This document shows positions 1,588 through 25,558 of a stretch of DNA of 36,037 nt, one piece after another. Position 1 is the stretch's first letter; the number at the start of each line of letters is the position of its first letter. The DNA is from a virus. The translations under genes and the position numbers were made by a program. The notes under the pieces were generated by a model, which had not been told where the DNA came from, did no database searches, and was given only the letters and a program-made list of their open reading frames with translations. The stretch lies in the IMG/VR virus record IMGVR_UViG_3300045776_000084. One strand, written 5' to 3'.

Positions 1588-2043
1588 TTAGCCCTTCTGT
1601 CCCGGTGTTCCGACAGCGGCGGATGTGGTAGCAGTTGCTGGCGGAGTGGTCGGGTCAGTTAGTTCAGCTTTCAGCTCTGTGAGGCTCGTAGTGGGGTCTT
1701 TTTGTTTTGCTGCGGTTATCATAGCGGCGATGTCCGAGAAGGAAGCGGTGCCCTTGTTGATGGCATATGGTGCGGCAATTAGGCCAATGAGCGCGGTTAA
1801 AACTATTGGAAGGTTTGAAAGATACACACTCACCATAGCCACGTCAGTCAAGTGGGTTACGTGGTAGATAATCCGCTGAACGACCCACATAGTAAAAAAT
1901 GAAAACAAGAACATGAGCACCCGGGTGGATGAGGGTTCCCCGCTGGGCTCACTGATAAGCCCCCGCACGAAAGCTAGGGTTCGAGTTGTCCATCTCGTTA
2001 TGACCATCGAAAAGCCCCCCCTGTTAAGGGGGGCGGTATTCAT
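1588..2043 (-). CDS. Small integral membrane protein (3 predicted TM helices, PT-rich tail). The real start may be M13 at 2007, just after a terminator-like hairpin.
   Basis: Hydrophobic helices. ATGA overlap with the stop of the upstream ClpB-like gene. The GC hairpin 2014-2033 lies inside the first 12 codons. Confidence 0.45.
   Translation of the reverse strand: MNTAPLNRGGFSMVITRWTTRTLAFVRGLISEPSGEPSSTRVLMFLFSFFTMWVVQRIIYHVTHLTDVAMVSVYLSNLPIVLTALIGLIAAPYAINKGTASFSDIAAMITAAKQKDPTTSLTELKAELTDPTTPPATATTSAAVGTPGQKG
2014..2033 (-). terminator. GC-rich stem-loop (GCCCCCC-TTAACA-GGGGGGC) followed by TTTT on the minus strand, immediately after the ClpB-like stop
   Basis: Perfect 7-bp G/C stem and 6-nt loop seen directly. 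On the minus strand a T-run follows (plus 2010-2013 AAAA). Confidence 0.35.
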
Positions 2044-4568
2044 TTTTTACTCTCGGTGGGCTTCGGTTTTGGCTTCGTCACGGGGCGCTGGCGTCCCGTG
2101 TAGGAGACGGGCGGCTCATGGTTCAGTCGATCAATTTCACGCTCGGTCAAGCCCTCCTGCAATCGCTTCAGCAAGTTGTTGAGCCCGTGGACATCATCTA
2201 ATTTATTCACTTCATTATAAAGTTCGTTGGCCTTCTTCAGACGGGTCTTCGCTTCGGTGGGGCTGGTGGTCTGAAGCTTCTCCGCCATGACGGGAGCGAG
2301 CGCACCTTGGGTGAGGAGGGTAAACGTCAAGGTACCCGTCTTGTCTATGTCAATTGCAATCGTGTCACCAAGGGTGATTTGCCCACTAGATACAAGATTG
2401 GACAAGGGGGATACCAGCATCCTCTCAATGGTGCGTTTCAGGTGACGAGCCCCATACTTGGGGTCGATCCCCTCTTTTAGGAGCACAGTCTTTACCGCAT
2501 CAGAACAGGTAAAGACGAACTGGGAATTACCCACGCAACTGAGAATCCGCCGCTGCACGATACCCAACTCAATGTCAAGTATCTCCTTCAGGTGCTCCTC
2601 GCGGAGTGTTTTGAAGACCACAACCTTGTCGAGTCGGTTCATGAATTCAGGAGAGAATTTACGCTTCGCCGCCCCCTCTGCTACCCTCTCAATCTTTGTG
2701 TCAAACTGGTCATCTATAGAGCTGTCGGGGCTTCTGAACCCCATGCCGCCCTCTGCCAAACCCTGCATTTGGCTGGCTCCAAGGTTCGAGGTCATGACGA
2801 TAAGACAGCGGCTTAGGTCAACCCGGCGAGTGTCTCCAAGGGTAAGTGTGGCCTTGTCCAGAACCCCGAGCAGGAGGTTCCACAGGGAGTCAGAGGCTTT
2901 TTCGATTTCGTCAAAAAGGAGCAAAGTAATCTGGTGTTCGGGAGTATGCCATTGGTTTAACGCTTCTTGCGTCAGGAGGGGGTGAGTCTCACGGTGGCCC
3001 AGATATCCCGGTGGGCTATTCGACACCACCATGTTCTCTACCACATAAGACGTTTTTTCCTCCACAGAAAAATCATACACAAATCCCTCATACTCAACCT
3101 CATCGACGGCTTTTATACGGCTGTACACATAGTCGTCGTCCACATGAGCCATGCGTTGAATTCCTGAATTCCCCGGATTGAAGATGTTTATACTCTTCCC
3201 ACACATTGGAAGGTTTTGTACAAAAGACTGAATCTGCTCTCCCGCCATATACAAGCGGTAACGGGGAACTGTCTTATACCCTCGTTTGTCTGGTTTTGGT
3301 ACTTGGCGTTGCATTTGTGTAACAAACCCCAAATTATGGATTAGCAGCCGCATCTGACTAGCCAAATTTGGTGAAGAGGTAGAGTAATCAAGACGGCGGC
3401 GAACGGTCTTCCCCCCGTCGCCTAGAATTGCCGTATCAAGGAAATTCCACAGCAAATCAGGGCTCAACTGTAAAAACCACACTGGAAGATGCTTATTCAG
3501 TGTGTGGTCACCAAAGAGGTCGGCCATTAGGCGGCTAACAACCCGAGAATGGTAATGGATGCGGGTAGAGTGGCTCTTTCGCTCTCTAACATGAACCGCC
3601 CCACCAATAAATACCCGCCCCAGAATGTCTCGCACTTCCTGAACACATGGTTGTTCTTGGACTTGGCTACCAAAAGTAAAGTTGATGGTTTTACGAGATT
3701 TAGAATTACCTCCCTCGCTTACATAGAAACCCGCCAAACGAGTGAAGTCCTTATCCACCTTGATAAATCGGCGAATCTTAATCAAGTCCCCAACCCCCCC
3801 TTTACTCCACACATAGTCATCGTCAAAGCAGAGTTTGGGCATTACGGAGGCGTATTCAGCCAAATCAAGGGTGACCTCTGAGGGCTCAAGGTGTTGTCGA
3901 GGGTAGACGACCACATCCCCCTTTCTCAACTCTCCCGCAGGGACATACTGTAAATTTTCAGATTGGTATAAATTACTCAGGTCTCTTCCAGTTCTGGTGC
4001 TCGCTCGTCTCCCTACAAACGGTTGTTTAATCGCCCACACTTTGTGTGGTGAGGTACACACCACCGGGACATTACTGTTACCCACCATCAATCGGGTTAG
4101 TACACCTTTGTACTTATACTGGTGCAGAAAGGTGACAAGATGGGGCTCCCCGTTTTTAGTGATAACCCAGTCTCCCACCTTCACCTGTTCGATTGGTTTT
4201 GTAGTCCCGTCAGACAGGAGAACCCCAGTTCCCGGAATAAAACAGCCAACTAGTTTGGCAATTTCGTGTGAGTGCTGGAACTCAGCACAGTCGATTTTGA
4301 TGAGAGCTTGGGGGTTGTTGAATAGAGTCTCAGCGATAGCTTCAACGACCTTGGTTTTCCCGGTTCCGCTGGGTCCGAGAAACAGCAGGTTGCCGATGGG
4401 GCGTCCCGGTGCATTCAACCCGGCTAAAAACATCTGATAAATTTCGCTGACTTTCTGGATAGCGGCATCCTGACCAACTACTTTACTACGAAGAGTCTTC
4501 TCAAACTCTAAGGAGGCTTTACTCTTGCGGTTAGGGTCTAGCTGTTTAACGGCTCCCGTTGTTGACAT
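2040..4568 (-). CDS. ClpA/ClpB D2-type single-AAA+ ATPase precursor containing an intein (842 aa precursor, about 433 aa after splicing)
   Basis: Walker A GPSGTGKT. After the intein: SPPGYLGH, Walker B LLLFDEIEKA, sensor VMTSNLG, and a ClpB C-terminal domain motif YGARHLKRTIE. The extein junction KLVG|SPPGY matches ClpB RLVG-APPGYVGY. Confidence 0.8.
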   Translation of the reverse strand: MSTTGAVKQLDPNRKSKASLEFEKTLRSKVVGQDAAIQKVSEIYQMFLAGLNAPGRPIGNLLFLGPSGTGKTKVVEAIAETLFNNPQALIKIDCAEFQHSHEIAKLVGCFIPGTGVLLSDGTTKPIEQVKVGDWVITKNGEPHLVTFLHQYKYKGVLTRLMVGNSNVPVVCTSPHKVWAIKQPFVGRRASTRTGRDLSNLYQSENLQYVPAGELRKGDVVVYPRQHLEPSEVTLDLAEYASVMPKLCFDDDYVWSKGGVGDLIKIRRFIKVDKDFTRLAGFYVSEGGNSKSRKTINFTFGSQVQEQPCVQEVRDILGRVFIGGAVHVRERKSHSTRIHYHSRVVSRLMADLFGDHTLNKHLPVWFLQLSPDLLWNFLDTAILGDGGKTVRRRLDYSTSSPNLASQMRLLIHNLGFVTQMQRQVPKPDKRGYKTVPRYRLYMAGEQIQSFVQNLPMCGKSINIFNPGNSGIQRMAHVDDDYVYSRIKAVDEVEYEGFVYDFSVEEKTSYVVENMVVSNSPPGYLGHRETHPLLTQEALNQWHTPEHQITLLLFDEIEKASDSLWNLLLGVLDKATLTLGDTRRVDLSRCLIVMTSNLGASQMQGLAEGGMGFRSPDSSIDDQFDTKIERVAEGAAKRKFSPEFMNRLDKVVVFKTLREEHLKEILDIELGIVQRRILSCVGNSQFVFTCSDAVKTVLLKEGIDPKYGARHLKRTIERMLVSPLSNLVSSGQITLGDTIAIDIDKTGTLTFTLLTQGALAPVMAEKLQTTSPTEAKTRLKKANELYNEVNKLDDVHGLNNLLKRLQEGLTEREIDRLNHEPPVSYTGRQRPVTKPKPKPTESKK
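3018..4244 (-). mobile_element. Intein (409 aa) with LAGLIDADG homing endonuclease, inserted between LVG and SPPGY of the AAA+ ATPase
   Basis: Begins CFIPGTGVLLSDG (block A). Block B TSPHKVW. Two LAGLIDADG-like motifs (LAGFYVSEGG, ILGDGGK). Block F VYDFSVEE. Ends VVSN followed by a +1 Ser. Confidence 0.7.
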
Positions 4569-6248: not shown

Positions 6249-6665
6249 ATGAGGTGTGCAATGTTAAACAAAGGATATGTGTACGTCATCGGAAACCGGG
6301 AGCAGGGGCTGTATAAAATAGGGTCCTCCCGCATTGACCCCCTCTATCGACTAGAACAAATTCAGCCCCACTGTCCATTTGAACTGGAGATGATTGAATT
6401 CTCCCTCGTCAAAAATGCCAAAAGAATCGAACAACGGTTACATGAGTTCTTTGAGTATGATAGGTTACGAATCAACAGTAAATTCACCGATTGGTTTAAA
6501 TTAACTGCTGATAAGGTTAAGAAAATCGGAGCGGGCATACCCAAGGATGAGGTCATAGATGACCCCACCCTCCAGTTAAAAGCAGAGCCAACATCCACCC
6601 CACCTGAGCCTTATTGTAAAGCCTCTGAGTTTCAAGAAGGCTCAGGTCTACTCATTTCAACATAA
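6249..6665 (+). CDS. GIY-YIG superfamily / T5orf172 (MUG113-like) domain protein
   Basis: KGYVYVIGN...LYKIGSS...RLEQI motif near the N-terminus, typical of the T5orf172/GIY-YIG family. The likely real start is MLNKGY at 6261. Confidence 0.5.
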   Translation: MRCAMLNKGYVYVIGNREQGLYKIGSSRIDPLYRLEQIQPHCPFELEMIEFSLVKNAKRIEQRLHEFFEYDRLRINSKFTDWFKLTADKVKKIGAGIPKDEVIDDPTLQLKAEPTSTPPEPYCKASEFQEGSGLLIST

Positions 6666-9279: not shown

Positions 9280-9610
9280 CAGTCTCCTTGGGTCTGCGGG
9301 AGCAGGTATGCTCTAAATCGGGGTAGCAATCATCCAATCCGTTGGGACAGCCGTCGCAGGGGCTATTCTGAGGATTTAGTTCGGGCAAGGGCTCAACAGG
9401 AGCGTTGTGGATGGCATAGTCAACCCGTCCCCCCGTGTAAGCACAGTTCAGTGCCATCGCTACCTGCTGCTGGTCAGATTCGCTTAGCAGCTCTTTGATG
9501 TAGCTGAATTGAAGTAGGTCGTTAAACAACTCCTTCACAAATGCGTCCCGACGTTTGGCCTCATCAGGTTGGTAGATTACTCGGGCTTTCCAATTTGGTT
9601 CGCTCATCAC
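9269..9610 (-). CDS. Hypothetical protein (113 aa)
   Basis: ORF in the minus-strand array. A 4-nt overlap with the upstream HNH gene. Confidence 0.4.
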   Translation of the reverse strand: MMSEPNWKARVIYQPDEAKRRDAFVKELFNDLLQFSYIKELLSESDQQQVAMALNCAYTGGRVDYAIHNAPVEPLPELNPQNSPCDGCPNGLDDCYPDLEHTCSRRPKETDEN

Positions 9611-10299
9611 AGTGTACCATCGGAAGCGTCGGAAGCGTCACAATCACAGGGGCCGGGTTCTTCGGCAGGAGCGCGGCTGGTGGCACAGTCAGAGGTATGA
9701 GTTTTTTTACCGCTTTGCTTGATGTATTCGGCTGCTTGTTGTTCTCGATTCATACAGTTCCTCATAGCTTCATGGTCTCCGGGTTGACAGCCACCCGATG
9801 TTGTTTTAGCCTGATGACAGTTTGCACAGAGGAGTTGAAGGATATCGGGAAATCCGTTCCGGTATGCCCATGTGTATAAAGAGGTTCCCCCTCTTCCTGT
9901 CTTTTTTGATAAAATTTTACGATGTGCGGCACCGTCATTATTGATATGGTCTAATTGTAAATACTTCTCTACAGTCATTCCACAGCAAGCGCAGCAACCG
10001 CCGTATGCCTCTATGCTGGCCAATCGGTGTATATGGTAGTTTTGTTTCTGTTTTACACCGTGTGACTGCAAACATCTCGCACACATGCTTGAGTTTTCGA
10101 GATGGGGTACCCTACAACAATAACGACACAACCCCTGCTCAATGGCTCGATTCTTTGCGTTGAGGCTGTACCCAAGGTGCTCTTCATGACATTTCTGGCA
10201 CCGAGTCTTTCCTTCCCACCTCTCGCCCCCACATCGTACGCACAACCCTTGCTTTTTGTACTGCTGGTACTTTTTGTTTATCGTTCGTTTACGTGCCAT
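9607..10299 (-). CDS. HNH endonuclease with N-terminal Cys-rich zinc-ribbon repeats
   Basis: Several C-x2-C pairs. HNH core LQLDHINNDG ... LQLLCANCH. Start chosen at the ATG (MARKR) with a GAGGTG RBS 9 nt upstream. The track start at 10311 is a GTG. Confidence 0.65.
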   Translation of the reverse strand: MARKRTINKKYQQYKKQGLCVRCGGERWEGKTRCQKCHEEHLGYSLNAKNRAIEQGLCRYCCRVPHLENSSMCARCLQSHGVKQKQNYHIHRLASIEAYGGCCACCGMTVEKYLQLDHINNDGAAHRKILSKKTGRGGTSLYTWAYRNGFPDILQLLCANCHQAKTTSGGCQPGDHEAMRNCMNREQQAAEYIKQSGKKTHTSDCATSRAPAEEPGPCDCDASDASDGTL

Positions 10300-10334
10300 C
10301 TCTCCACACACCTCTACTAGAGGAGAGACAAAGT

Positions 10335-11348
10335 TTATTTTCTTAAGCCGTTGTACCTAACTACTTGTTCTTTCCAGTGAGTTGATGTCTGAACATGGCC
10401 TTTACGCACCCATTTCCCCACTAAACGTCTAAAATCCCCAAATTGAAAAGCAGCGGCAGGTCGGATAACGAACCCCTCTTGGCGGTTTAAGTCAAGCGAG
10501 GCACTGAGCTGGCTCACGAGGCTATCTGACCACAACCCCCTGTATAAAACCGGGACTACTGGAAGATGGAGCAGGGTCGCATACTCAACGGTATCATCCC
10601 ATGACAGGCATTTCAAATTCTCCCAGATGCCGAAGATGTAGAAGTACCCCTCTAGGTCGGTGTACTCGATGGAGTGTACGGCTGTTACGTTTTCTCCACA
10701 CAAGCGAAGCCCCTCCGGGATATCGTGGGCAATTTCAGCCCAGATTCGTTTTATGAACGTGCGGGAGGGGTGAGGTTCGTAATCAAGAGACCGGGCGTGC
10801 ATATAGTCGTGGTACAAAGTTGTACACTCGCCGTCTAGTTTCTCAGTAGCGATAACCTCCATGCCCTGCCACTGGTCAGTGGAGGCATGGATTTTGTCAT
10901 CGTCAGACGCACCGGGGGAGGTAGCGTAGTGAAATGTACGAGGATATTTTACCCGATTGGTGAATAGATGAAGGAGGGGTGCAAGCATTTTCTGCACTGG
11001 TTCTTCATCAAAAAGTTCTCCACGGAGGCGTAGTCCGCTTGGAAGAATGACGTTGCCCCACTTGTCGTAGCGGTCTTCGGGGCTAAGATGATCTGGTAGC
11101 CGAGGGGTTCCGACGTGAATAGCCGCCCGGATATCGTCGGCTGAGATAGTCGTGTTCTCCGCTCCCACATGACAGTCTGCACAGAGCGTGGCTCCGTTGT
11201 CGAGGTAGTATCCGCCATCGGTGAATAGTTTCCTTTCGATGATGTGGTGGGCAGCGTCTCCCGGCTGGCCGCAGATGACACACTTGTGCCCGTCTCTGGC
11301 GAAGACCCCTTCGCGGAACTCATTACGGGTTAGTAGTGTCGTTTCCAT
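10335..11348 (-). CDS. Fusion of an HNH-type nuclease domain (N-terminal) and an ATP-dependent RNA-ligase-like nucleotidyltransferase (Rnl2/pfam09414-like)
   Basis: N-terminal C-x2-C...HH...N...C-x2-CH (CVICGQPGDAAHHII...NGATLCADCH). Ligase motif I EKLDGE (KxDG without the +5 Arg typical of DNA ligases). Motif III FGIWE. Motif IV EGFVIRP. Motif V GKWVRKGH. Start taken at the ATG METTLL. The track start is a GTG. Confidence 0.55.
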   Translation of the reverse strand: METTLLTRNEFREGVFARDGHKCVICGQPGDAAHHIIERKLFTDGGYYLDNGATLCADCHVGAENTTISADDIRAAIHVGTPRLPDHLSPEDRYDKWGNVILPSGLRLRGELFDEEPVQKMLAPLLHLFTNRVKYPRTFHYATSPGASDDDKIHASTDQWQGMEVIATEKLDGECTTLYHDYMHARSLDYEPHPSRTFIKRIWAEIAHDIPEGLRLCGENVTAVHSIEYTDLEGYFYIFGIWENLKCLSWDDTVEYATLLHLPVVPVLYRGLWSDSLVSQLSASLDLNRQEGFVIRPAAAFQFGDFRRLVGKWVRKGHVQTSTHWKEQVVRYNGLRK

Positions 11349-11485
11349 AGTTTTACCGAATAGTCGGGCAGTAGTCGTGGATGAAAGCACCGCACCTTCG
11401 ACAAAGGATGACTGTGTCCACGGGGTTGTAGGGCTCGTGGGGCTTCCGCCAGAACGTTCTCCAGCATCTCTTGATTATAACCACT

Positions 11486-13260: not shown

Positions 13261-14046
13261 CTATAGTTGGTCTTTATGCTTAACAAGTTGATTCAACAAA
13301 CAGTCATCGGCTCTTTTGTCGTTTCGTTTACGAAGAAGCACTGGCTGTACAATATGATTGCTTCGCGTGGCGTAAAGATAGCGGACTTCAACTACATCCA
13401 ACTTATTCAATTGGAACTTTCCACGAAGAGACACCCCCGAGACCTCATATAGCCGTCCCCGTTCGTCGTAGACACCAATGCGAACGCTGTTGTGGCCTTC
13501 CGGGCTGGGTCCGATAACCACAGCATCTAAAGTGCGAGTGAACTTCAGCTTGAAGTGATTCCCAGAACGACCCTCACTGTAGGACTTAGCCATGTTTTTG
13601 ATGACCACGCCCTCGGAATGGGACTCCAACAGGGCAATGACCAGCTTAATTTTGGCGGTATCGTCGCGGGTGGTCTTAACCGGGATGATGCGAGGGCTGA
13701 ATCCGTCGAACTCAGCATGATAGCGGGATTCGCGGTACTCGTAGGCATCGTGGATGATGGTCTCATCACCTAAAATTAGGGAATCGAACACGTGGATGGT
13801 GCTCTTTACTAGCTCCACGTCGATGACGAATTGCTCAAGAGGGTGGGAACGAAGGGCGTTGATGAGAACCACGGGGAGGGGTTTTCCACTCTCGCCTTCC
13901 CGGTTCCAGTTACGGATGGTTTTCCCCTGCTTGCAAATCGTCCGCCGTTCTCCGTTGAACTTCTCCTGAAATCCATAGTTGGAGTTATGGATGAACCGCT
14001 CCAACTGCTCTTGCGTGATTTCAGTGAGTAGTTCAGACTTAATCAT
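13261..14046 (-). CDS. Compact ATP-dependent nucleic-acid (probably DNA) ligase of the nucleotidyltransferase superfamily, with a variant motif I K-F-N-G-E-R
   Basis: Motif I EKFNGER. Motif III VIDVELV. Motif IV EGVVIKN. Motif V HFKLKF. A partial OB-like C-terminus. GAGG RBS. Confidence 0.6.
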   Translation of the reverse strand: MIKSELLTEITQEQLERFIHNSNYGFQEKFNGERRTICKQGKTIRNWNREGESGKPLPVVLINALRSHPLEQFVIDVELVKSTIHVFDSLILGDETIIHDAYEYRESRYHAEFDGFSPRIIPVKTTRDDTAKIKLVIALLESHSEGVVIKNMAKSYSEGRSGNHFKLKFTRTLDAVVIGPSPEGHNSVRIGVYDERGRLYEVSGVSLRGKFQLNKLDVVEVRYLYATRSNHIVQPVLLRKRNDKRADDCLLNQLVKHKDQL

Positions 14047-14188
14047 GTCGCCTCAACGGTGTCTCCATCTTTCGCTTAGAGCGTCCAGTGCCGCCACCAG
14101 AAAGCTGACCTTCTCGAACTCATCGAACAGTTTCTCGTACCGGATTTTGTTGAAAAGTGAAGTCAAACTCGGGATTGTCCATATTCAG

Positions 14189-14218
14189 AGTATACGGGGA
14201 GTACCGGGGGTTTGTCTA
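14189..14218 (-). promoter_or_regulatory. Conserved promoter-like element directed leftward (TAGACA – 18 nt – TATACT) upstream of the ligase operon
   Basis: Same motif family as 25530-25558 and 31265-31294 (TAGACAAACCC...CCGTATACT). It sits in a divergent intergenic region 14047-14294. Confidence 0.4.
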
Positions 14219-14294: not shown

Positions 14295-17200
14295 ATGATG
14301 CAAATTGAAAACTGGCGTGGCCTGTGGAACCTATTGACAACCTATGCGGTCAACGACATCGCGTATTATGAGGGCTCATCCTACTTCGCTTTGGACATCA
14401 ACACCGGGAAAGCCCCAATCCTTGCAAACATAGGGGTTTACTGGTCTCCAGTGGCCTTAGCCGGGGAGCAGGGAATTCAGGGTCAGCAGGGCGTTATAGG
14501 CCCCACTGGAATTCAAGGTGTACCCGGAATTCAAGGGCCAGCAGGGAACCCCGGAATTCAGGGAATTCAAGGAAATCAAGGTGACCGCGGGCCTGAGGGT
14601 TTGCCCGGAATTAAGGGCGATACCGGGAGTCAGGGGATTCAGGGAGTCAAGGGCGACACCGGAATTCAAGGTGTACCCGGGGTTCAGGGAGTCAAGGGCG
14701 ATATTGGCGACACCGGCCAAGGCTTAGTTTGGCGGAACACTTGGGAGGCGATTGCCACCTACAACACCTATGACTGTGTCCCCTATGAGGGAGCATCATA
14801 TATCTGCCTTGCCCCCAACGTCCTGAATGTGTCCCCAGATTCGGATGATTCAAAGTGGGGCTTACTAGCGCAGGGCGGCGGTACAATTGATTGGTCGGAG
14901 ATTAAAGATGTTCCTACCACGGTAGCCGGGTACGGCATCACCGACCTATCCCCCGTGGCAACGTCGGGCTCGTACAACGACCTCAACAACAAGCCAACCT
15001 TAAACTTCGACCCGGCTGGGTCAGCAAGTACGGTACAAGGGAGTCTTACAGCGGAGGTAACAAGAGCGGAGGGGGTTGAGGCTTTGAAGGCTAACACTTC
15101 TAGCCTTGCTCCAGTTGCCTTCTCAGGGGATTACGCTGACCTGAGTGGAACACCCACCCTCGGTACCGCCGCCACTCAGAACAGCTCCGCGTTCGACCCG
15201 GCTGGTACGGCCTCTACAGTTCAAACCAACCTCACCTCGGAAACTTCGCGTGCTCTCGCGGCGGAGGGTCTGCTCGTCCCGAAGACCACAACTATCAATG
15301 GCAAAGCCCTCTCCAGCAACGTGACCTTGGCGATAACTGACTTTGGGGGAACGCTCCCGCACGCTCAATTGCCGACTTTGCTCAGCACCGACATTCCAAG
15401 CATCCCCGAATCACAGGTCACCAACCTCGTCAACGACTTGGCCGCAACCGAAAAGACTGCGAACAAGGGCGCGGTGAACGGCTATGCTGGCTTAGACGCT
15501 AACGGGCAGCTCTATACTTCACAGCTCCCAGCACTTGCTATTGTGAGCACCTCTGTGGTCTCCTCTCAGACTGCGATGCTGGCACTCACAGCTCAGCAAG
15601 GTGACGTAGCTATTCGTGAGGACATCAACGAAACGTTCATCCTTGCTGCGTCTGACCCCACCCTCCTCGCCAACTGGAAGCAAATTCTCACCCCGGCATC
15701 CCCGGTACAGAGTGTCAACGGACAGACAGGAATTGTGAACCTCGCCATCCCGGCAGCTCAGGTCAATAGTGACTGGGCATCGGGGAGCGGTGTAACTCAA
15801 ATTCTCAACAAGCCCACCCTCGGCACCGCCGCAGCTCAGAATTCATCTGCCTTTGATTCCGCTGGCTCTGCTGCGACAGTGCAGACCAACCTCACCTCGG
15901 AAGTCTCTCGTGCAACCACTGCGGAAGGTCTGCTGGTTCCAAAAACAACCACGGTAAATGGTCACGCCCTATCCGCTAATGTCACGGTCTCTGCTTCTGA
16001 TCTTACAACGGGAACCCTGCCTGTTGGTCAACTTCCAACAATCCCATATAGCCAACTTTCGGGCACGCCAACGATTCCTTCTGTACCTCTCACGACCATT
16101 CAAAATAATGGTGTCACGGTCACCCCCGTCTCAGGAACGGTCAATCTCATACCCGGCTCGAACGTCACCTTGACCACCTCAGGTGACTCTATCACCGTTG
16201 CCTCCACGACAACATTCTCCGCCCTGACGGGTTCCACCAACACCACAGCCGCCATGGTGGTGGGTACAGGGTCGTCTATCGCTGCAACTGGTACTGGTAC
16301 CATCACTGCTACCTCCTGCCCAACGGAGACCACCCGCGCTGAGGCTGCTGAAGCTCTCCTGCTACCTATCACCACGGCAGCCAGCACCTATGCTACTCAG
16401 ACCAACCTGACGGCTGAAGTTACTCGTGCAGAGGCGGCTGAGGCACTGCTTGTGGCCAAGACCACAACAATTGCTGGCCACCCACTGTCTGGCAACGTGA
16501 CTGTTGCGTATACTGATCTAACCGGCCTTCCGACTCTTGGAACTGCCGCATCACACGCATCTACAGACTTTGATTCTAGCGGTGCCGCAGCGTCGGTTCA
16601 GACAACTGTAAGCGCATCCATCTCTGCCGAGACAGCGCGGGCTGAAGCTGCCGAAGCTGTCCTTACCACAGCCGTCGCTGGTAAGCAATCTGCCCTCGGG
16701 TACACACCAGAGAATTTGGCCAACAAGGGTGTAGCAAGTGGTTATCCAACCCTTGATAGCACAGCGCACATCCCGATCAATCAACTTCCTGCCTCTGTGC
16801 AGGGAGCAATGTCATACGTTGGTGTGTGGAATGCAGCCACCAACACTCCGGCAATTAGTAGTGGAGTAGGAACTAAGGGTTTCTTCTACAAGGTCAGTGT
16901 TGCTGGCTCGACAACAGTTGATGGCAACTCTATTTGGCACGTTGGCGACATGCTCATCTTTGATGGAGCTGCGTGGGATAAGATTGACAACTATGAAGCT
17001 GTAACATCTGTTGTGGGGCGCACTGGTGCAATCACTCTTAGTGAGGCAGACATCACTGGGTTGGTTGCTGACCTTGGCACACTCACTGCGGGCATCGCCG
17101 GAGAAGTAACCCGTGCGGAAGGCATTGAGGCCACGCTGGCCGCAAACCTCGCAGCGGAAGTTACAAGGGCTGAAGGTGTAGAGAGCACACTTGCCCCGAT

Positions 17201-17984
17201 AGCAGGGCCACTGTTTAATGGCCCTGTTGGTATTGATGTAGCTACTCCAGATCAAGCTCTTACTCTTGCCACTGGTGATGCTGTTGCGTGGATGCAACCG
17301 CAGAGATTTGGGGGTGGCGGTGGTACACTAGAAGGCGGAGATACATCCGATACGGGGCTTTCCAGAACGGATGTTGGAGTTGTGGCGGTTGGTAACGGTC
17401 AACCCGGCGATACTTCTGGGTCGTTGCAGTGTGCTGTAATCCTTGCTGGTAACCTTGCCAACTCGGCAACTACTGACACTACAAACGCAGCAAATATCAC
17501 AAGCGGTGTGCTGCCTCTCGCGCAAGTCCCGGCAATCCCCGTTAGCAAGACCACTGGGTTTGCCACTGTCGCCACAACTGGCACATATAGTAGCCTCACA
17601 GGTCTTCCGGCCATCCCGGTTGTAGGAACTGTCACCCCGGTTGTAGATGGAGCCGCCTCAATAGGCAGCACTGGTAAATGGGCAGACGCTGGACACATTC
17701 ACCCAACTGACACCAGCCGTGTGGCCACCAGTACCACGGTCAATGGTCACACGCTAAGCAGCAATGTGGTTGTTTCCGCTTCCGACCTCACAACTGGCAC
17801 GCTGCCCGTTGCCCAGCTCCCCACGATTCCATACAGCCAACTTTCGGGCTCCCCCACTTTGGGTAACGCCGCACCTTTGAATGTGGGAACCACAAGCGGA
17901 ACTGTGGCGGCTGGGGACGACCCTCGGCTTAACGCTGCGGTATCCACCGCGAGAGCTGTAGCTTTCGCCATTGCCTTCGGTTAA
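14295..17984 (+). CDS. Tail fibre protein (1229 aa) with a collagen-like Gly-X-Y region and repeated fibre modules
   Basis: AAGGGGA RBS. About 29 consecutive G-X-Y triplets (aa 55-145). Repeated modules SGSYNDLNNKPTL, LGTAAAQNSSAFD..TVQTNLTSE..RA..AEGLLVPKTTT.NG.ALS.NVT, and TRAEAAEALL. A C-terminal module shared with the 860-aa fibre. Confidence 0.75.
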   Translation: MMQIENWRGLWNLLTTYAVNDIAYYEGSSYFALDINTGKAPILANIGVYWSPVALAGEQGIQGQQGVIGPTGIQGVPGIQGPAGNPGIQGIQGNQGDRGPEGLPGIKGDTGSQGIQGVKGDTGIQGVPGVQGVKGDIGDTGQGLVWRNTWEAIATYNTYDCVPYEGASYICLAPNVLNVSPDSDDSKWGLLAQGGGTIDWSEIKDVPTTVAGYGITDLSPVATSGSYNDLNNKPTLNFDPAGSASTVQGSLTAEVTRAEGVEALKANTSSLAPVAFSGDYADLSGTPTLGTAATQNSSAFDPAGTASTVQTNLTSETSRALAAEGLLVPKTTTINGKALSSNVTLAITDFGGTLPHAQLPTLLSTDIPSIPESQVTNLVNDLAATEKTANKGAVNGYAGLDANGQLYTSQLPALAIVSTSVVSSQTAMLALTAQQGDVAIREDINETFILAASDPTLLANWKQILTPASPVQSVNGQTGIVNLAIPAAQVNSDWASGSGVTQILNKPTLGTAAAQNSSAFDSAGSAATVQTNLTSEVSRATTAEGLLVPKTTTVNGHALSANVTVSASDLTTGTLPVGQLPTIPYSQLSGTPTIPSVPLTTIQNNGVTVTPVSGTVNLIPGSNVTLTTSGDSITVASTTTFSALTGSTNTTAAMVVGTGSSIAATGTGTITATSCPTETTRAEAAEALLLPITTAASTYATQTNLTAEVTRAEAAEALLVAKTTTIAGHPLSGNVTVAYTDLTGLPTLGTAASHASTDFDSSGAAASVQTTVSASISAETARAEAAEAVLTTAVAGKQSALGYTPENLANKGVASGYPTLDSTAHIPINQLPASVQGAMSYVGVWNAATNTPAISSGVGTKGFFYKVSVAGSTTVDGNSIWHVGDMLIFDGAAWDKIDNYEAVTSVVGRTGAITLSEADITGLVADLGTLTAGIAGEVTRAEGIEATLAANLAAEVTRAEGVESTLAPIAGPLFNGPVGIDVATPDQALTLATGDAVAWMQPQRFGGGGGTLEGGDTSDTGLSRTDVGVVAVGNGQPGDTSGSLQCAVILAGNLANSATTDTTNAANITSGVLPLAQVPAIPVSKTTGFATVATTGTYSSLTGLPAIPVVGTVTPVVDGAASIGSTGKWADAGHIHPTDTSRVATSTTVNGHTLSSNVVVSASDLTTGTLPVAQLPTIPYSQLSGSPTLGNAAPLNVGTTSGTVAAGDDPRLNAAVSTARAVAFAIAFG
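14457..14720 (+). repeat. Collagen-like triplet-repeat coding tract (GIQG/GVKGDTG repeats) inside the tail-fibre gene
   Basis: Period-9/18 nt repetition (GGAATTCAAGG / GGAATTCAGGG variants) encoding Gly-X-Y. It produces a spurious antisense ORF 14457-14720. Confidence 0.7.
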
Positions 17985-18014
17985 GACTTTCGAGCCCTAT
18001 ATAGGAGCATTTTC

Positions 18015-19898
18015 ATGCAAGTAATGGTTGGCAACAACTACGGTTCGTACTCATTTAACGCCACAACAGGTGTCATTACCCTGTCAGGGTTGCCGACTCC
18101 TTTAACTCAAGAGCAGGTGAAGCTGATTATTTGTGCAGCGACCAACACAATCATATTCAACCTAGCCGACCCAACTCAGACAGCCGTTGTCTCAGGGGGT
18201 AACACCATTGCCCTATCATATAACACAACTGGGATGGACGGTCACCCGCTTCAAATTTTCTTAGAGGTACCGGGTACTGAAGCTCAGCAGGGACAGAGCA
18301 ATGAAACCCCGTTGATGACTGTAATCGCGGGGCTGACGCAGGATGTAATCCCCCAGTACCAAGAGATTCCCCTTACATCAGGGGCGACGGCGGTAGTAAC
18401 AAGTGACGCCCACATAACGTCGTCAACGGCGCAAGCCGGGGGTGTTACTCCTTCCCAAACCTTACTGGCCATCGCAGGTCTTACCAATGACCCCACCCCC
18501 CAATATCAAGAGATTCCTCTCGGGCCGGGTGGGAACGCCGTTCTTGTTAATGGCTCCGCTTTCACGCAGCCTATCAGTGGTCAGTATAACGCCGTGCCCC
18601 CTACACTCGGGTCAGGCAGCGTGGGTGTTTTGCAGACTGATGTAAACGGTAACCTAAGAGTCGTCTCTGGTTCTATTGACGGGACAATCCTAGATACGCA
18701 GTCATCTGTTACCTTAGGGGCGGGGGCAACCTACAACGTTGCCGGGTATGGTTTTCTATCCTTTCAATTCAACGGTGCGTGGTCAGGAAACATCAAGATT
18801 GAAGCTAGCAACGATGGTGTGACATGGACTCAGCAGTATGTTCAGTACCTCGGCACAGGGTGGGTCTCGGACGTAATCAACCTTCCGGGTGCCATCGTAC
18901 AAGTCACTGCCGCCAGCATCTACATGCGGTACAACGTTATTAAGTTGAGCGGCACGGCCACCGTTACAGTTGTAGGAAACACTGGTGCCATATCAACCAC
19001 CAGTCTGCTTGGTATGGCATTTGATGCAGCCTCGGGTGTCCAGCTCAACACCAATATCACTAACCTGAATAAGGACACCAGCAACGCTCTGATTTTGAGC
19101 GATGCCCCTGCTCCTATACCCATCTCTGGAGGTATCGGCTCTACTATCATCATAGATACTCAAGGGTACGAGTCTCTGAACATTACAACTCAGGGTTTGG
19201 CTGGGGCTGTTACCACCTCGAATGATAAGGTCACTTGGTCAGCTCTGTCTGGCACTCCTCTAGTGTTGGGAACTCTTGTAACCTCCGTTGCGGCCAACAC
19301 TGGGTATAGCTTCCCCTGTATCGCACGATTCATCCGCTTCGTACTTACCGCCGTAGGTTCCGCTACCGTGTTTCTTCGTAGCACCCCGTGGCAGAGTGCC
19401 TATACCACTACGGTTCCCACCAGCACTGCTAATAACAACTTGAGCCAGATTAACACCACTACAGTGGCATCGGCTGGGGTTGGTGGCATACTCGCAGTGG
19501 GGGGTAACGTCGCCCCTGGTTCAGCTCAGACGGCGTACCCTCTGGTGGTAGGTGGGGTTGACCCTACAAGTGCCACTCGTCGTATCCAGACAGACGCCAC
19601 AGGACGCATCAATGCCAACATGGTGACTACGGATGCTGCCTCCGTTCAAAGAGGCGTGGGCGTCATGCCCCCGGCCACCACCAGTCAGAACGTTGCACCA
19701 TTGGCAGTACAGGAGTTAACCCAATTTGAAGGGCAGTCCTTCGTTGAACTTCTTGGTCAGATTCTTACCGAACTGAGAATTTCCAACCATTACAACTTCA
19801 ACCTGCCGAGTTTGCTGACTACCGGAACTATTAATAGCACGGGCGACGAACCAGCAGCTCTTCGTAATGACCCGAATATTTCTACATTGTTTGGCTAA
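18015..19898 (+). CDS. Phage structural (tail/fibre-associated) protein with an internal duplicated module
   Basis: The duplication is ...AGLT.D..PQYQEIPL..G..AV.... Ser/Thr/Gly/Asn-rich composition typical of tail proteins. It immediately follows the fibre gene. Confidence 0.5.
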   Translation: MQVMVGNNYGSYSFNATTGVITLSGLPTPLTQEQVKLIICAATNTIIFNLADPTQTAVVSGGNTIALSYNTTGMDGHPLQIFLEVPGTEAQQGQSNETPLMTVIAGLTQDVIPQYQEIPLTSGATAVVTSDAHITSSTAQAGGVTPSQTLLAIAGLTNDPTPQYQEIPLGPGGNAVLVNGSAFTQPISGQYNAVPPTLGSGSVGVLQTDVNGNLRVVSGSIDGTILDTQSSVTLGAGATYNVAGYGFLSFQFNGAWSGNIKIEASNDGVTWTQQYVQYLGTGWVSDVINLPGAIVQVTAASIYMRYNVIKLSGTATVTVVGNTGAISTTSLLGMAFDAASGVQLNTNITNLNKDTSNALILSDAPAPIPISGGIGSTIIIDTQGYESLNITTQGLAGAVTTSNDKVTWSALSGTPLVLGTLVTSVAANTGYSFPCIARFIRFVLTAVGSATVFLRSTPWQSAYTTTVPTSTANNNLSQINTTTVASAGVGGILAVGGNVAPGSAQTAYPLVVGGVDPTSATRRIQTDATGRINANMVTTDAASVQRGVGVMPPATTSQNVAPLAVQELTQFEGQSFVELLGQILTELRISNHYNFNLPSLLTTGTINSTGDEPAALRNDPNISTLFG

Positions 19899-19913
19899 TA
19901 AAGGAGATTTTCC

Positions 19914-20627
19914 ATGCAGATTCAGACTCAGGTTGGCCCCATCGCAACCACACAATCTATCGCTCCCGGCTCTATTGCCGCCGTGCGTTCGGGTAACCTT
20001 GGCGATACTATCGTTTCCGAGTTGCACGGAAGATTCTACGAACAGGCATATCGTCTCAACCTGTATTCCGCAGGTATGACGACCCTTACCTCAATTTCCA
20101 ACGCCACCTTCACCACGGCTACTGGCATGTCCGCTACCCTTGGTACCGCAGCTACTGGAACCCCGGTCATCGGCATTTGGAACCCGTCCACCTCCACCAT
20201 CAATGCGGTCATCCTTCAAGCCACTCTCAACGTCACCCTCACCGCCCTCACCGCGACTGGTGCAGGTGGATTTGTTTGGGGTGTGTTTGCTGGTAACGGT
20301 GCCCTCACCTTAGGCAACGCTCCCATCAACCGCAAGACTTTGACGGCTGGTGGCTCACAGTGCAAGAACCTGTCTGGCCTAGCTCTTACGGGTTTGACCA
20401 ACGTCGGTGTTGTCGTTGCCGCATCTACCCTCAACGGGGGGCCTATCTACAACGTCTCCGAAGTGGGCACGGCTGCTGGTTTCCACACGGTAGCTTTGAC
20501 CTCAGTTGAGAACCTTGACGGCTCAATCATCCTGCCCCCGGGCGGTGTGCTTGCTCTCTTTGCGACGACCACCCCGGTGGCCTTGTCCGCAGTCGGCTCC
20601 CTGCTCTGGGAAGAAGTACCTGTGTAA
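19914..20627 (+). CDS. Phage structural protein (Thr/Ala/Gly-rich), possibly a fibre distal component
   Basis: AAGGAGA RBS. The composition resembles neighbouring structural genes. It is followed by a strong terminator. Confidence 0.45.
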   Translation: MQIQTQVGPIATTQSIAPGSIAAVRSGNLGDTIVSELHGRFYEQAYRLNLYSAGMTTLTSISNATFTTATGMSATLGTAATGTPVIGIWNPSTSTINAVILQATLNVTLTALTATGAGGFVWGVFAGNGALTLGNAPINRKTLTAGGSQCKNLSGLALTGLTNVGVVVAASTLNGGPIYNVSEVGTAAGFHTVALTSVENLDGSIILPPGGVLALFATTTPVALSAVGSLLWEEVPV

Positions 20628-24783: not shown

Positions 24784-25509
24784 CTAAAAGGGCACCACGT
24801 CATGCGGATTGAAGCCACGGGCAGCGGTAGCAGCCGCACGGTCTGTGGCGGCTTGAGCCTCACGCTTGGCCTTCTCGTCGGCGTACTGACGGGCGGCTAT
24901 GATGCGTGCAGCAGCCTGTTCAGCCTTCTTGGCTATATCGGCGGTGAACTGGTCGCAGATACGGGTGTAGTCGGCAGTCGCACGGGTGTAAAACTTGGCG
25001 TAGCTGACTTGATTTTTGTACTCAGGGACGCCCTTCTTAATGGACTCACCCATTACCCACAGTTCGCGGGGGAGCCACATCGCCCAAGTGTTAGCGGCAC
25101 GCCAGTCTTCAATCAGCTTGGTGGCACGGGCAACAGCCGCCTCGTAAGCGGGACGGGCTTCATTGGCTTCAGCGGTGCGCTTGGCAGTGTTCTGGGCAAT
25201 CTTCTCGTCAGCCAGACGCCGCTCCAGCTTATCCACCGCAGCTTGCAGCTTGGCGAACAGCTCGGGATTGTAGCTCTGGAAGTGATTGATGCATTCAGAG
25301 CCCACAGGGGCGGACTCTCCGGTCTCGGGATTGTAGATGAGGAATACGTAACGGATGGGGTGGTCGCAAGTGCATTTTCCAGAAGGACGACCAAGGTCAA
25401 TGCACTCACCACGATACTCATACTTTGAAGGGTCACCCAGACGCTGGACAAACTTGGCTACGATGCCGAGGAAAGATAAAGTATTCCCAAGTTTGCTCGT
25501 GTCTGCCAT
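24784..25509 (-). CDS. Hypothetical protein with an N-terminal Cys/His cluster and a C-terminal Ala/Lys/Glu-rich helical region
   Basis: GECIDLGRPSGKCTCDHP...GSECINHF. GGAGGG RBS. A conserved promoter lies immediately upstream. Confidence 0.5.
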   Translation of the reverse strand: MADTSKLGNTLSFLGIVAKFVQRLGDPSKYEYRGECIDLGRPSGKCTCDHPIRYVFLIYNPETGESAPVGSECINHFQSYNPELFAKLQAAVDKLERRLADEKIAQNTAKRTAEANEARPAYEAAVARATKLIEDWRAANTWAMWLPRELWVMGESIKKGVPEYKNQVSYAKFYTRATADYTRICDQFTADIAKKAEQAAARIIAARQYADEKAKREAQAATDRAAATAARGFNPHDVVPF

Positions 25510-25529
25510 TAGTGTTTCCCTCCATTTAC

Positions 25530-25558
25530 AGTATACCGGGACTCACCGGGTTTGTCTA
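25530..25558 (-). promoter_or_regulatory. Conserved sigma70-like promoter (TAGACA – 17 nt – TATACT, then GTAAATGGAGGG RBS) upstream of gene 24784-25509
   Basis: Near-consensus -35/-10 with a 17-nt spacer read directly. Nearly identical to the element at 31265-31294. Confidence 0.5.

Follow-up and report, generated by a model that had tools for sequence, protein, structure and literature searches.

A minimal phage ligase with an asparagine in motif I and a Ku homolog on the same contig

What does a very small ligase-like protein join, and for what end, when its first catalytic motif carries an asparagine in the place of the canonical aspartate? The question is raised by IMG/VR virus record IMGVR_UViG_3300045776_000084, a stretch of 36,037 nucleotides, called the window in what follows, which comes from the genome of a large uncultured phage. 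A preliminary description, drawn from the letters of the window, had proposed that positions 13,261 to 14,046 encode a protein of 261 amino acids (aa) of the covalent nucleotidyltransferase superfamily, with Asn for Asp in motif I, and had held its substrate, DNA, RNA or both, to be genuinely ambiguous. The open reading frame (ORF) is there: it starts with ATG and lies on the minus strand, the description having named none, and its motif I reads K29-F-N31-G, with AAC as the codon of the Asn. We argue below that the protein is very probably an active DNA ligase, and we ask whether it could be the sealing partner of a Ku homolog encoded by the same phage.

The family to which the protein belongs is readily established. 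The best profile matches are all ligases, not proteins outside the ligase and capping-enzyme superfamily, so that the placement among minimal two-domain covalent nucleotidyltransferases stands. The match to PF01068 in Pfam scores 38.0 bits for a gathering cut-off of 26.2 (E 1.9e-9), the match in PHROGs is to an “ATP-dependent DNA ligase”, and public pipelines, including that of JGI, already give the protein this label; among NCBIfam models, the nearest are of the LigC/LigD type, all far under their equivalog cut-offs. A profile of the family compared with every sequence of the PDB yields 37 matches, of which all 37 are DNA ligases. The family profile is required for this result: phmmer with the single ligase sequence finds marginal matches only (T4 ligase, E 0.29).

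The preliminary description had also called for a structure prediction of an OB domain, and the predicted model contains one. The AF2 model, built with 35 homologs, has a pLDDT of 95.3 and a pTM of 0.86, and consists of a nucleotidyltransferase (NTase) domain followed by an OB domain that is all-beta at residues 171-240. Compared with the PDB by Foldseek, the model has only DNA ligases as top matches (E ~1e-15), with TMq values of at most 0.78 to the DNA-bound Lig1 and Lig3; the structural alignments to the NTase and OB domains of Lig1, Lig3 and T4 ligase extend over 241-243 residues and are full-length. A search of a viral structure library again returns DNA ligases, at identities of at most 21%. 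The protein, with its 261 aa, is among the smallest DNA ligases, though not without precedent: in the PDB, Lig E chains have 249-256 residues and the Chlorella virus ligase chain has 293.

The four motif strings listed in the preliminary description (EKFNGER, VIDVELV, EGVVIKN and HFKLK) are all present, and three more can be added to them: WNREGE for motif Ia, IHVFDSL for motif IIIa and LRKRNDK for motif VI (Table 1). In alignments with solved ligases, Lys29 falls on the nucleophile of their motif I, namely the K of EIKYDG in the Thermococcus/Pyrococcus enzymes (3rr5, 9df9, 2cfm), and is invariant in the 191 family sequences compared (191/191), with G32 and R34 at least 95% conserved. At the other end of the protein, the conserved R241-x-D243-K244 matches motif VI of the same archaeal ligases in the alignment. 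Within the clade of sequences that carry the Asn, twelve positions are at least 95% conserved: K29, G32, R34, N48, D76, E78, D88, E145, G146, K168, R241 and D243; for G51 of motif Ia the figure is at least 90%. The KxDGxR pattern by which DNA ligases are recognized fails at its position +2, which is Asn31; by its defining sequence features, the motif I Asp excepted, the protein is an ATP-dependent DNA ligase.

A cysteine not counted among these motifs, C249 (13300-13302, minus strand), lies five residues past motif VI in the pattern RxDKxxxxC. It is invariant in 128 of 128 Asp-type sequences and present in 96% of the Asn clade, a conservation of the same degree as that of the catalytic residues, and we know of no role assigned to it.

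Table 1. Features of the window discussed in the text; positions are those of the whole stretch, residues those of the ligase.
Feature	Position	Strand	Remarks
Ligase coding sequence, 261 aa	13261..14046, stop included	minus	ORF call, PF01068, AF2 model, PDB matches
NTase (adenylylation) domain, residues 1-170	13537..14046	minus	AF2 secondary structure, motif positions, alignment to PF01068 and solved ligases
OB-fold domain, residues 171-261, with motif VI	13264..13536	minus	
Motif I EKFNGER, residues 28-34	13945..13965	minus	Lys29 13960-13962; Asn31 13954-13956, codon AAC
Motif Ia WNREGE, residues 47-52	13891..13908	minus	N48 and G51 invariant or nearly
Motif III VIDVELV, residues 74-80 (D76, E78)	13807..13827	minus	E78 invariant
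Motif IIIa IHVFDSL, residues 84-90 (F87, D88)	13777..13797	minus	D88 invariant
Motif IV EGVVIKN, residues 145-151 (E145, G146)	13594..13614	minus	E145 and G146 invariant
Motif V HFKLK, residues 164-168 (K166, K168)	13543..13557	minus	K168 invariant
Motif VI LRKRNDK, residues 238-244 (R241, D243, K244), OB domain	13315..13335	minus	aligns with PRYVALREDK of archaeal DNA ligases
Leader between promoter-like -10 box and ligase ATG, 143 nt	14047-14189	minus	very short ORFs only
Promoter-like element of the ligase, TAGACA-18-TATACT	14186..14218	minus	-10 box ends 143 nt upstream of the ATG
Promoter-like element upstream of ORF 24784-25509	25527-25555	minus	
Promoter-like element upstream of the Ku gene	31262..31294	minus	
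Promoter-like element upstream of rIIA	35372-35404	minus	
Ku homolog, 328 aa	30254..31240	minus	PF02735 74 bits; PHROG 4873 “Ku-like DNA end binding”
HNH (PF01844, N-terminal)-PF09414 RNA ligase fusion	10338-11390	minus	PF09414 100 bits; motif I KLDG

Is the substrate then ambiguous? The profiles, the profile search of the PDB and the two fold searches all lead to ATP-dependent DNA ligases, and the ambiguity is not supported. The RNA-ligase model PF09414 gives 12.5 bits for a cut-off of 27, and PF09511 is not reported for this protein; its closest structural neighbours are not RNA ligases, and the OB domain and motif VI are not replaced by accessory domains of the Rnl type. The presence of an OB domain with motif VI, as in DNA ligases and capping enzymes, is thus one reason to set the ambiguity aside. 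The preliminary description was right that KxNG occurs in RNA ligases: the literature has it in fungal Trl1 and in MthRnl (PMC6379707, PMC4797309). In this genome, though, the motif is no flag of an RNA ligase, because the phage has a PF09414 RNA ligase of its own, about 2 kb from the DNA ligase, and that enzyme carries KLDG, together with the motifs EGFVIR and GKWVRK. The RNA ligase is fused to an HNH domain; fusions of Rnl proteins with endonucleases are mentioned in PMC7824862.

The next question is how unusual the Asn is. A word-indexed search returned 46 homologs, of 226-371 aa, and an exhaustive profile search over 1.84 billion representatives yielded 2,049 clusters at E <= 1e-30; motif I was tabulated for 191 sequences of the family. 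Position 31 is Asp in 128 of them and Asn in 63. All members of the clade of the query (55/55) have KxNG, and eight Asn sequences form seven separate occurrences in the tree amid Asp-type relatives, including forms of about 360 aa with an N-terminal extension. On a neighbour-joining (NJ) tree, Fitch parsimony requires at least nine changes between D and N at this position: the Asp that had been called near-invariant is not so in this family. The codons are one transition apart, AAC for Asn and GAC for Asp, and a sequencing error was considered; it is ruled out by the clade-wide occurrence of the Asn and by the presence of an identical protein on 14 public contigs, among which the window is the longest.

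If the Asn had called for a compensatory change elsewhere in the protein, a residue varying together with it might be expected; none was found that is common to the independent Asn lineages. Since the catalytic residues are at least 95% conserved and no second site co-varies, the pattern is that of an active enzyme for which D and N are interchangeable, and not of a pseudo-enzyme or of a redesigned active site. Judged by the alignment, position 31 behaves as a variable, not a defining, position within the family. Many of the Asp-type relatives are about 360 aa long (P0046, P0064 and others) and bear an N-terminal extension of about 100 aa, which in P0046 is annotated as WGR (PF05406).

How an Asn might do the work of the Asp is suggested by solved structures. 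In the pre-step-3 complex of the Prochlorococcus ligase, the motif I Asp, D169, has no direct contact to the catalytic Mn. Asn150 of the KxNG motif of fungal Trl1 reaches the catalytic metal through a water molecule (PMC6379707), the Asn in motif I of MthRnl is reported to do the same (PMC11040149), and the motif I Asn is dispensable in MthRnl and yeast Trl1 (PMC4797309). Because the Asp touches the metal only via bound water in solved ligases, the substitution would be a tolerated one, and not diagnostic of a new substrate. The enzyme would then work in the usual three steps: Lys29 would be adenylylated by ATP, the AMP would be passed to a DNA 5'-phosphate, and attack by the 3'-OH would seal the strand. 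By analogy with Trl1 and MthRnl, the carboxamide of Asn31 would make the same outer-sphere, water-mediated contact to the catalytic metal as the Asp does. The protein is predicted to be catalytically active, and its substrate is probably DNA.

We now turn to the Ku homolog of the window, whose relatives in cultured phages are only the Ku proteins of cluster J (Omega-like) mycobacteriophages, at 27-28% identity. A scan of viral contigs with the single Ku sequence gave no match. In a survey of 30 ligase-bearing loci with flanks of about 10 kb, made by local tblastn with the proteins of the window, 10 of the 30 have a Ku gene at no more than 10 kb from the ligase. Ku lies immediately upstream of the ligase and on the same strand in L011, L012, L013, L015, L018 and L028, to which L032/L033 were later added. 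In the precomputed gene calls for this lineage (P0052), present on 68 contigs, a Ku of 335 aa (PF02735) ends 10 bp before the start of the ligase, so that the two genes form an operon. The ligase of this lineage has the motif I K-H-D-G, and no RNA ligase was seen within 10 kb of it. When the D/N column is left out of the alignment, the lineage falls inside the Asn clade in 59 of 60 bootstrapped NJ trees, and an earlier run is consistent with this. On these trees, then, the Asn group includes among its orthologs an enzyme with the canonical Asp whose gene forms an operon with Ku.

Asn-type ligases, for their part, share contigs with Ku in five distinct lineages, at distances of 2.4 kb (L010), 5.7 kb (L016/L017), 8.7 kb (L008), 14.4 kb (the P0015/P0209 contigs) and 16 kb (this window). 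In the first of these the order rIIA-rIIB-Ku-...-ligase-x-RNA ligase is collinear. The operon of the nested KxDG ortholog, and the contigs that Asn-type genes share with Ku, count further against an ambiguous substrate.

The ligase and Ku genes also have a putative regulatory signal in common. The preliminary description placed the ligase directly downstream of a member of a conserved promoter family. The family is real: the element TAGACAAA-N14-CCCGGTATACTGTAAA (also TAGACAAA...CCCGGTATACT) has four minus-strand copies upstream of genes, where 0.12 are expected by chance. The word “directly” is loose, as the -10 box is 143 nt away from the ligase, and the ligase copy, CCCCGTATACTCTG, is the most divergent of the four.

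After three of the four copies come GGAG and an ATG, at a distance of no more than about 25-30 nt; for rIIA, the alignment suggests that the gene starts with an ATG some 20 nt past the TTG chosen by the ORF finder. Within the leader of the ligase, an ORF of 20 aa (14120-14182) has its ATG 6 nt past the -10 box, and another of 37 aa, with a TTG start (14053-14166), ends 6 nt before the ligase ATG.

It is thus natural to ask what Ku and the ligase could do together. The reading that we favour, as somewhat better than an even guess, is that of a minimal ATP-dependent DNA ligase in which Asn31 is tolerated and which is the sealing partner of the phage Ku in a reaction akin to non-homologous end joining (NHEJ). 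A ligase with neither DNA-binding domain nor latch would seal ends for the phage-encoded Ku, the two genes being presumably transcribed from promoters of one family, in a two-component reaction that would be autonomous to the phage. Such end joining might close the linear genome into a circle upon its entry, mend double-strand breaks inflicted by nucleases of the host, or do both; the cooperation of the two proteins, like its purpose, is a conjecture from their genomic linkage.

Several points weigh against this reading. Asn-type ligases never adjoin Ku, and in one Asn subclade (L001, L002, L005, L009, L014) Ku was not found in flanks of about 10 kb. These five loci are not counted as free of Ku because the available flanks end short: those of L001 and L005 stop at a vault-like gene, whose counterpart in the window is still about 2 kb short of Ku. 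A promoter type in common defines at most one expression class, in which rIIA is included. The models of NHEJ-ligase equivalogs are missed by a wide margin: TIGR02779 (36.5 vs 227.75), TIGR02776 (32.3 vs 373.2) and PRK08224 (50.6 vs 296). Chlorella virus ligase and human LigIV lose their nick sealing when the motif I Asp is replaced by Ala (PMC6035275, PMC4797309), data on Asp to Asn, D29N included, were found for no DNA ligase in the literature searched, and the full activity proposed for the Asn form is deduced from conservation. Lastly, if this is the sole DNA ligase of the phage, of whose genome the window covers 36 kb, a general role in replication or recombination is at least as likely.

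That general role is the most serious of the alternatives, though on balance we hold it to be doubtful. The enzyme would seal Okazaki fragments and the nicks left by recombination or repair, and the presence of Ku in a block of early genes would be incidental. Many large phages indeed carry for their replication a single DNA ligase, ATP- or NAD-dependent (PMC7824862), and scans of the window revealed no second one. In Asn-type phages, the 2.4-16 kb between the ligase and Ku are filled with unrelated genes; among distant KxDG relatives (L019-L030 except L028, and Tunturiibacter phage Tunturi_5), no Ku is seen within 10-12 kb, and the ligase gene of Tunturi_5 stands amid genes of nucleotide metabolism and replication. 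Against an incidental presence stand the 10-bp operon of the nested lineage on its 68 contigs, Ku on the same contig in five distinct Asn-type lineages, and the promoter family that the two genes have in common. A general ligase and a partner of Ku are compatible roles, not mutually exclusive ones.

Further from the evidence, and improbable in our view, is a functional ligase of RNA or of RNA-DNA hybrids, engaged in RNA repair with the nearby PF09414 ligase and phosphohydrolases, the KxNG motif reflecting the shift of substrate. Besides the motif I of Trl1 and MthRnl, this account can call on a recurrent neighbourhood: as in the window, homologs of the PF09414 RNA ligase lie 0.6-7.1 kb downstream of the Asn-type ligase at seven related loci (L001, L002, L003, L005, L009, L010, L014), with phosphohydrolase or His_Phos_1 genes, and the KxDG lineage with the Ku operon shows no RNA ligase in its 10-kb surroundings. 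Some enzymes with the DNA-ligase fold take substrates that contain ribonucleotides. LigD prefers nicks with a 3'-ribonucleotide. RNA-splinted DNA ligation has been reported as well (PMC3919565). The case against this account is that made above, from the profiles, the fold and the phage's own KLDG enzyme.

Least credible of all, and very improbable, is a crippled ligase-like protein, defective in step 2 or reduced to binding AMP or DNA ends for want of the motif I Asp. The near abolition of nick sealing by the Asp to Ala change in Chlorella virus ligase and LigIV is what speaks for it; but Asn, unlike Ala, keeps a hydrogen-bonding oxygen and serves in active RNA ligases. The other catalytic residues, that is, the Lys nucleophile, both lysines of motif V and motif VI, are at least 95% conserved in a clade whose sampled members reach down to 41% identity to the query. 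A pseudo-enzyme is rejected because of this conservation.

How does the favoured pair, a minimal DNA ligase and Ku, compare with known systems? Minimal two-domain ligases are familiar: the ligase of Chlorella virus PBCV-1 has 298 aa and the mature bacterial Lig E about 250-260. The phage ligase is 15-19% identical to them, has KxNG where they have KxDG, is carried by a phage and is linked to Ku. Lig E is moreover a periplasmic protein with a signal peptide, and the phage ligase misses the corresponding model PRK09125 (22.6 for a cut-off of 200). Its N-terminus, MIKSELLTEITQEQ, has no obvious signal peptide, and MIKSELLTEITQEQLERF is hydrophilic on direct reading, a judgement made by eye without a predictor. 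Like LigD and LigC, which bacteria use with Ku in NHEJ, the ligase is associated with Ku in the genome; it differs in being encoded by a phage and in the Asn of motif I. No AEP polymerase or phosphoesterase module was found in it, as it consists of the NTase and OB domains only, or in the scanned ORFs of the window. By the profile scores it is related to the LigD/LigC equivalogs without being a member of them, and is a member neither of Lig E nor of any RNA-ligase family. With Trl1 (Rnl6) and M. thermoautotrophicum Rnl3, the likeness is the Asn at the same position of motif I.

A functional parallel is found in mycobacteriophages Omega and Corndog, whose phage Ku, in the work of Pitcher et al. 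2006 as cited by PMC7719229 and PMC4351075, recruits the host LigD for genome circularisation. A phage-encoded Ku and the proposed purpose, end joining of the phage genome, are the same in both cases. Omega and Corndog are described as relying on host LigD, whereas the phage of the window has a ligase of its own, and a nested sister lineage has Ku and ligase in one operon. The pairing of a phage-borne Ku with a minimal ligase was found described nowhere in the literature searched, which included a comparative review of jumbo phages.

What is new here is modest but real: a natural, clade-wide lineage of KxNG DNA ligases, with ready-made pairs of D and N orthologs. Such pairs, about 45% identical and without compensating changes, would allow a direct test of the acidic residue of motif I in adenylylation and sealing. 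A ligase of its own would free the end joining of a phage from its host, and so bears on circularisation and on the survival of nuclease-based defences; with its cognate Ku, a ligase of 261 aa may make a compact end-joining module for biotechnology.

A bolder proposal, which we hold to be less likely than not, is that this clade of phages possesses a self-sufficient end-joining kit of two proteins, Ku and a ligase of 261 aa with no polymerase, nuclease or DNA-binding module, in which the Asp of motif I, supposed to be essential in DNA ligases, has repeatedly been replaced in nature by Asn. If so, and if the Asn form is chemically altered, it would be the first KxNG DNA ligase known from nature; the alteration might lie in its metal dependence, in a slowed adenylyl transfer that would make sealing dependent on Ku, or in a tolerance of ribonucleotide ends. 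The kit could also serve as a counter-defence, resealing the double-strand breaks that restriction enzymes or CRISPR nucleases leave.

The genes around the ligase give some further information on the phage. The window includes rIIA, rIIB, a tail fibre with collagen repeats, a Clp-like AAA+ protein that contains an intein, and a gene resembling that of a vault protein. When 12 kb of the window were compared by megablast with 50,697 phage genomes, no match was returned, from which it follows that the phage has no close cultured relative. The AAA+ ATPase (2040-4568, minus strand), which is like Clp and the D2 domain of ClpB and is an “ATP-dependent protease” in PHROG, is split by an intein carrying a LAGLIDADG homing endonuclease (PF14528, PF14890, Hint modules); its homolog in L001 also has Hom_end/LAGLIDADG domains. 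An ORF with a T5orf172/MUG113 domain (6249-6665, plus strand), probably a GIY-YIG-like homing endonuclease, lies opposite to the strand of its neighbours, and an HNH ORF occupies 9607-10311. Together with the intein, these two ORFs suggest a high load of selfish endonucleases in the region.

Just upstream of the ligase, and between minus-strand genes, begins a plus-strand tail-fibre module (14295-20627), formed of a fibre of 1229 aa with collagen-like G-x-y and internal repeats of 125-173 nt, and of ORFs of 627 and 237 aa. It breaks both the collinear order rIIA-rIIB-Ku-...-ligase-Rnl of L010 and the adjacency of a TPR gene and the ligase in L001/L002, which points to a rearrangement or to the insertion of a module at the junction of ligase and tail fibre.

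The vault-like gene (25888-28347, minus strand) encodes a protein of 819 aa with the shoulder and repeat domains of the Major Vault Protein (PF11978 92 bits, PF17795); unusual for a phage, it is kept near Ku and the ligase in L001, L002, L005 and L035. Another locus, L034, is centred on a vault-like protein and belongs to a different phage; it was of no help in placing Ku in the L001/L002/L005 subclade. The stretch that separates Ku from the vault-like gene holds, both on the minus strand, a PTH2-like peptidyl-tRNA hydrolase (28478-28906; PF01981, 26 bits) and an ATP-grasp protein of the R2K clade (29005-29913; PF14243, 66 bits). In L006-L009, it is the Asn-type ligase that has the ATP-grasp gene upstream of it, at about 450 bp. 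Finally, directly upstream of rIIA-rIIB-Ku and running to the end of the window (35427-36029, minus strand), is the C-terminal part of a UvrB homolog, with Helicase_C, UvrB and UVR domains, a component of nucleotide-excision repair.

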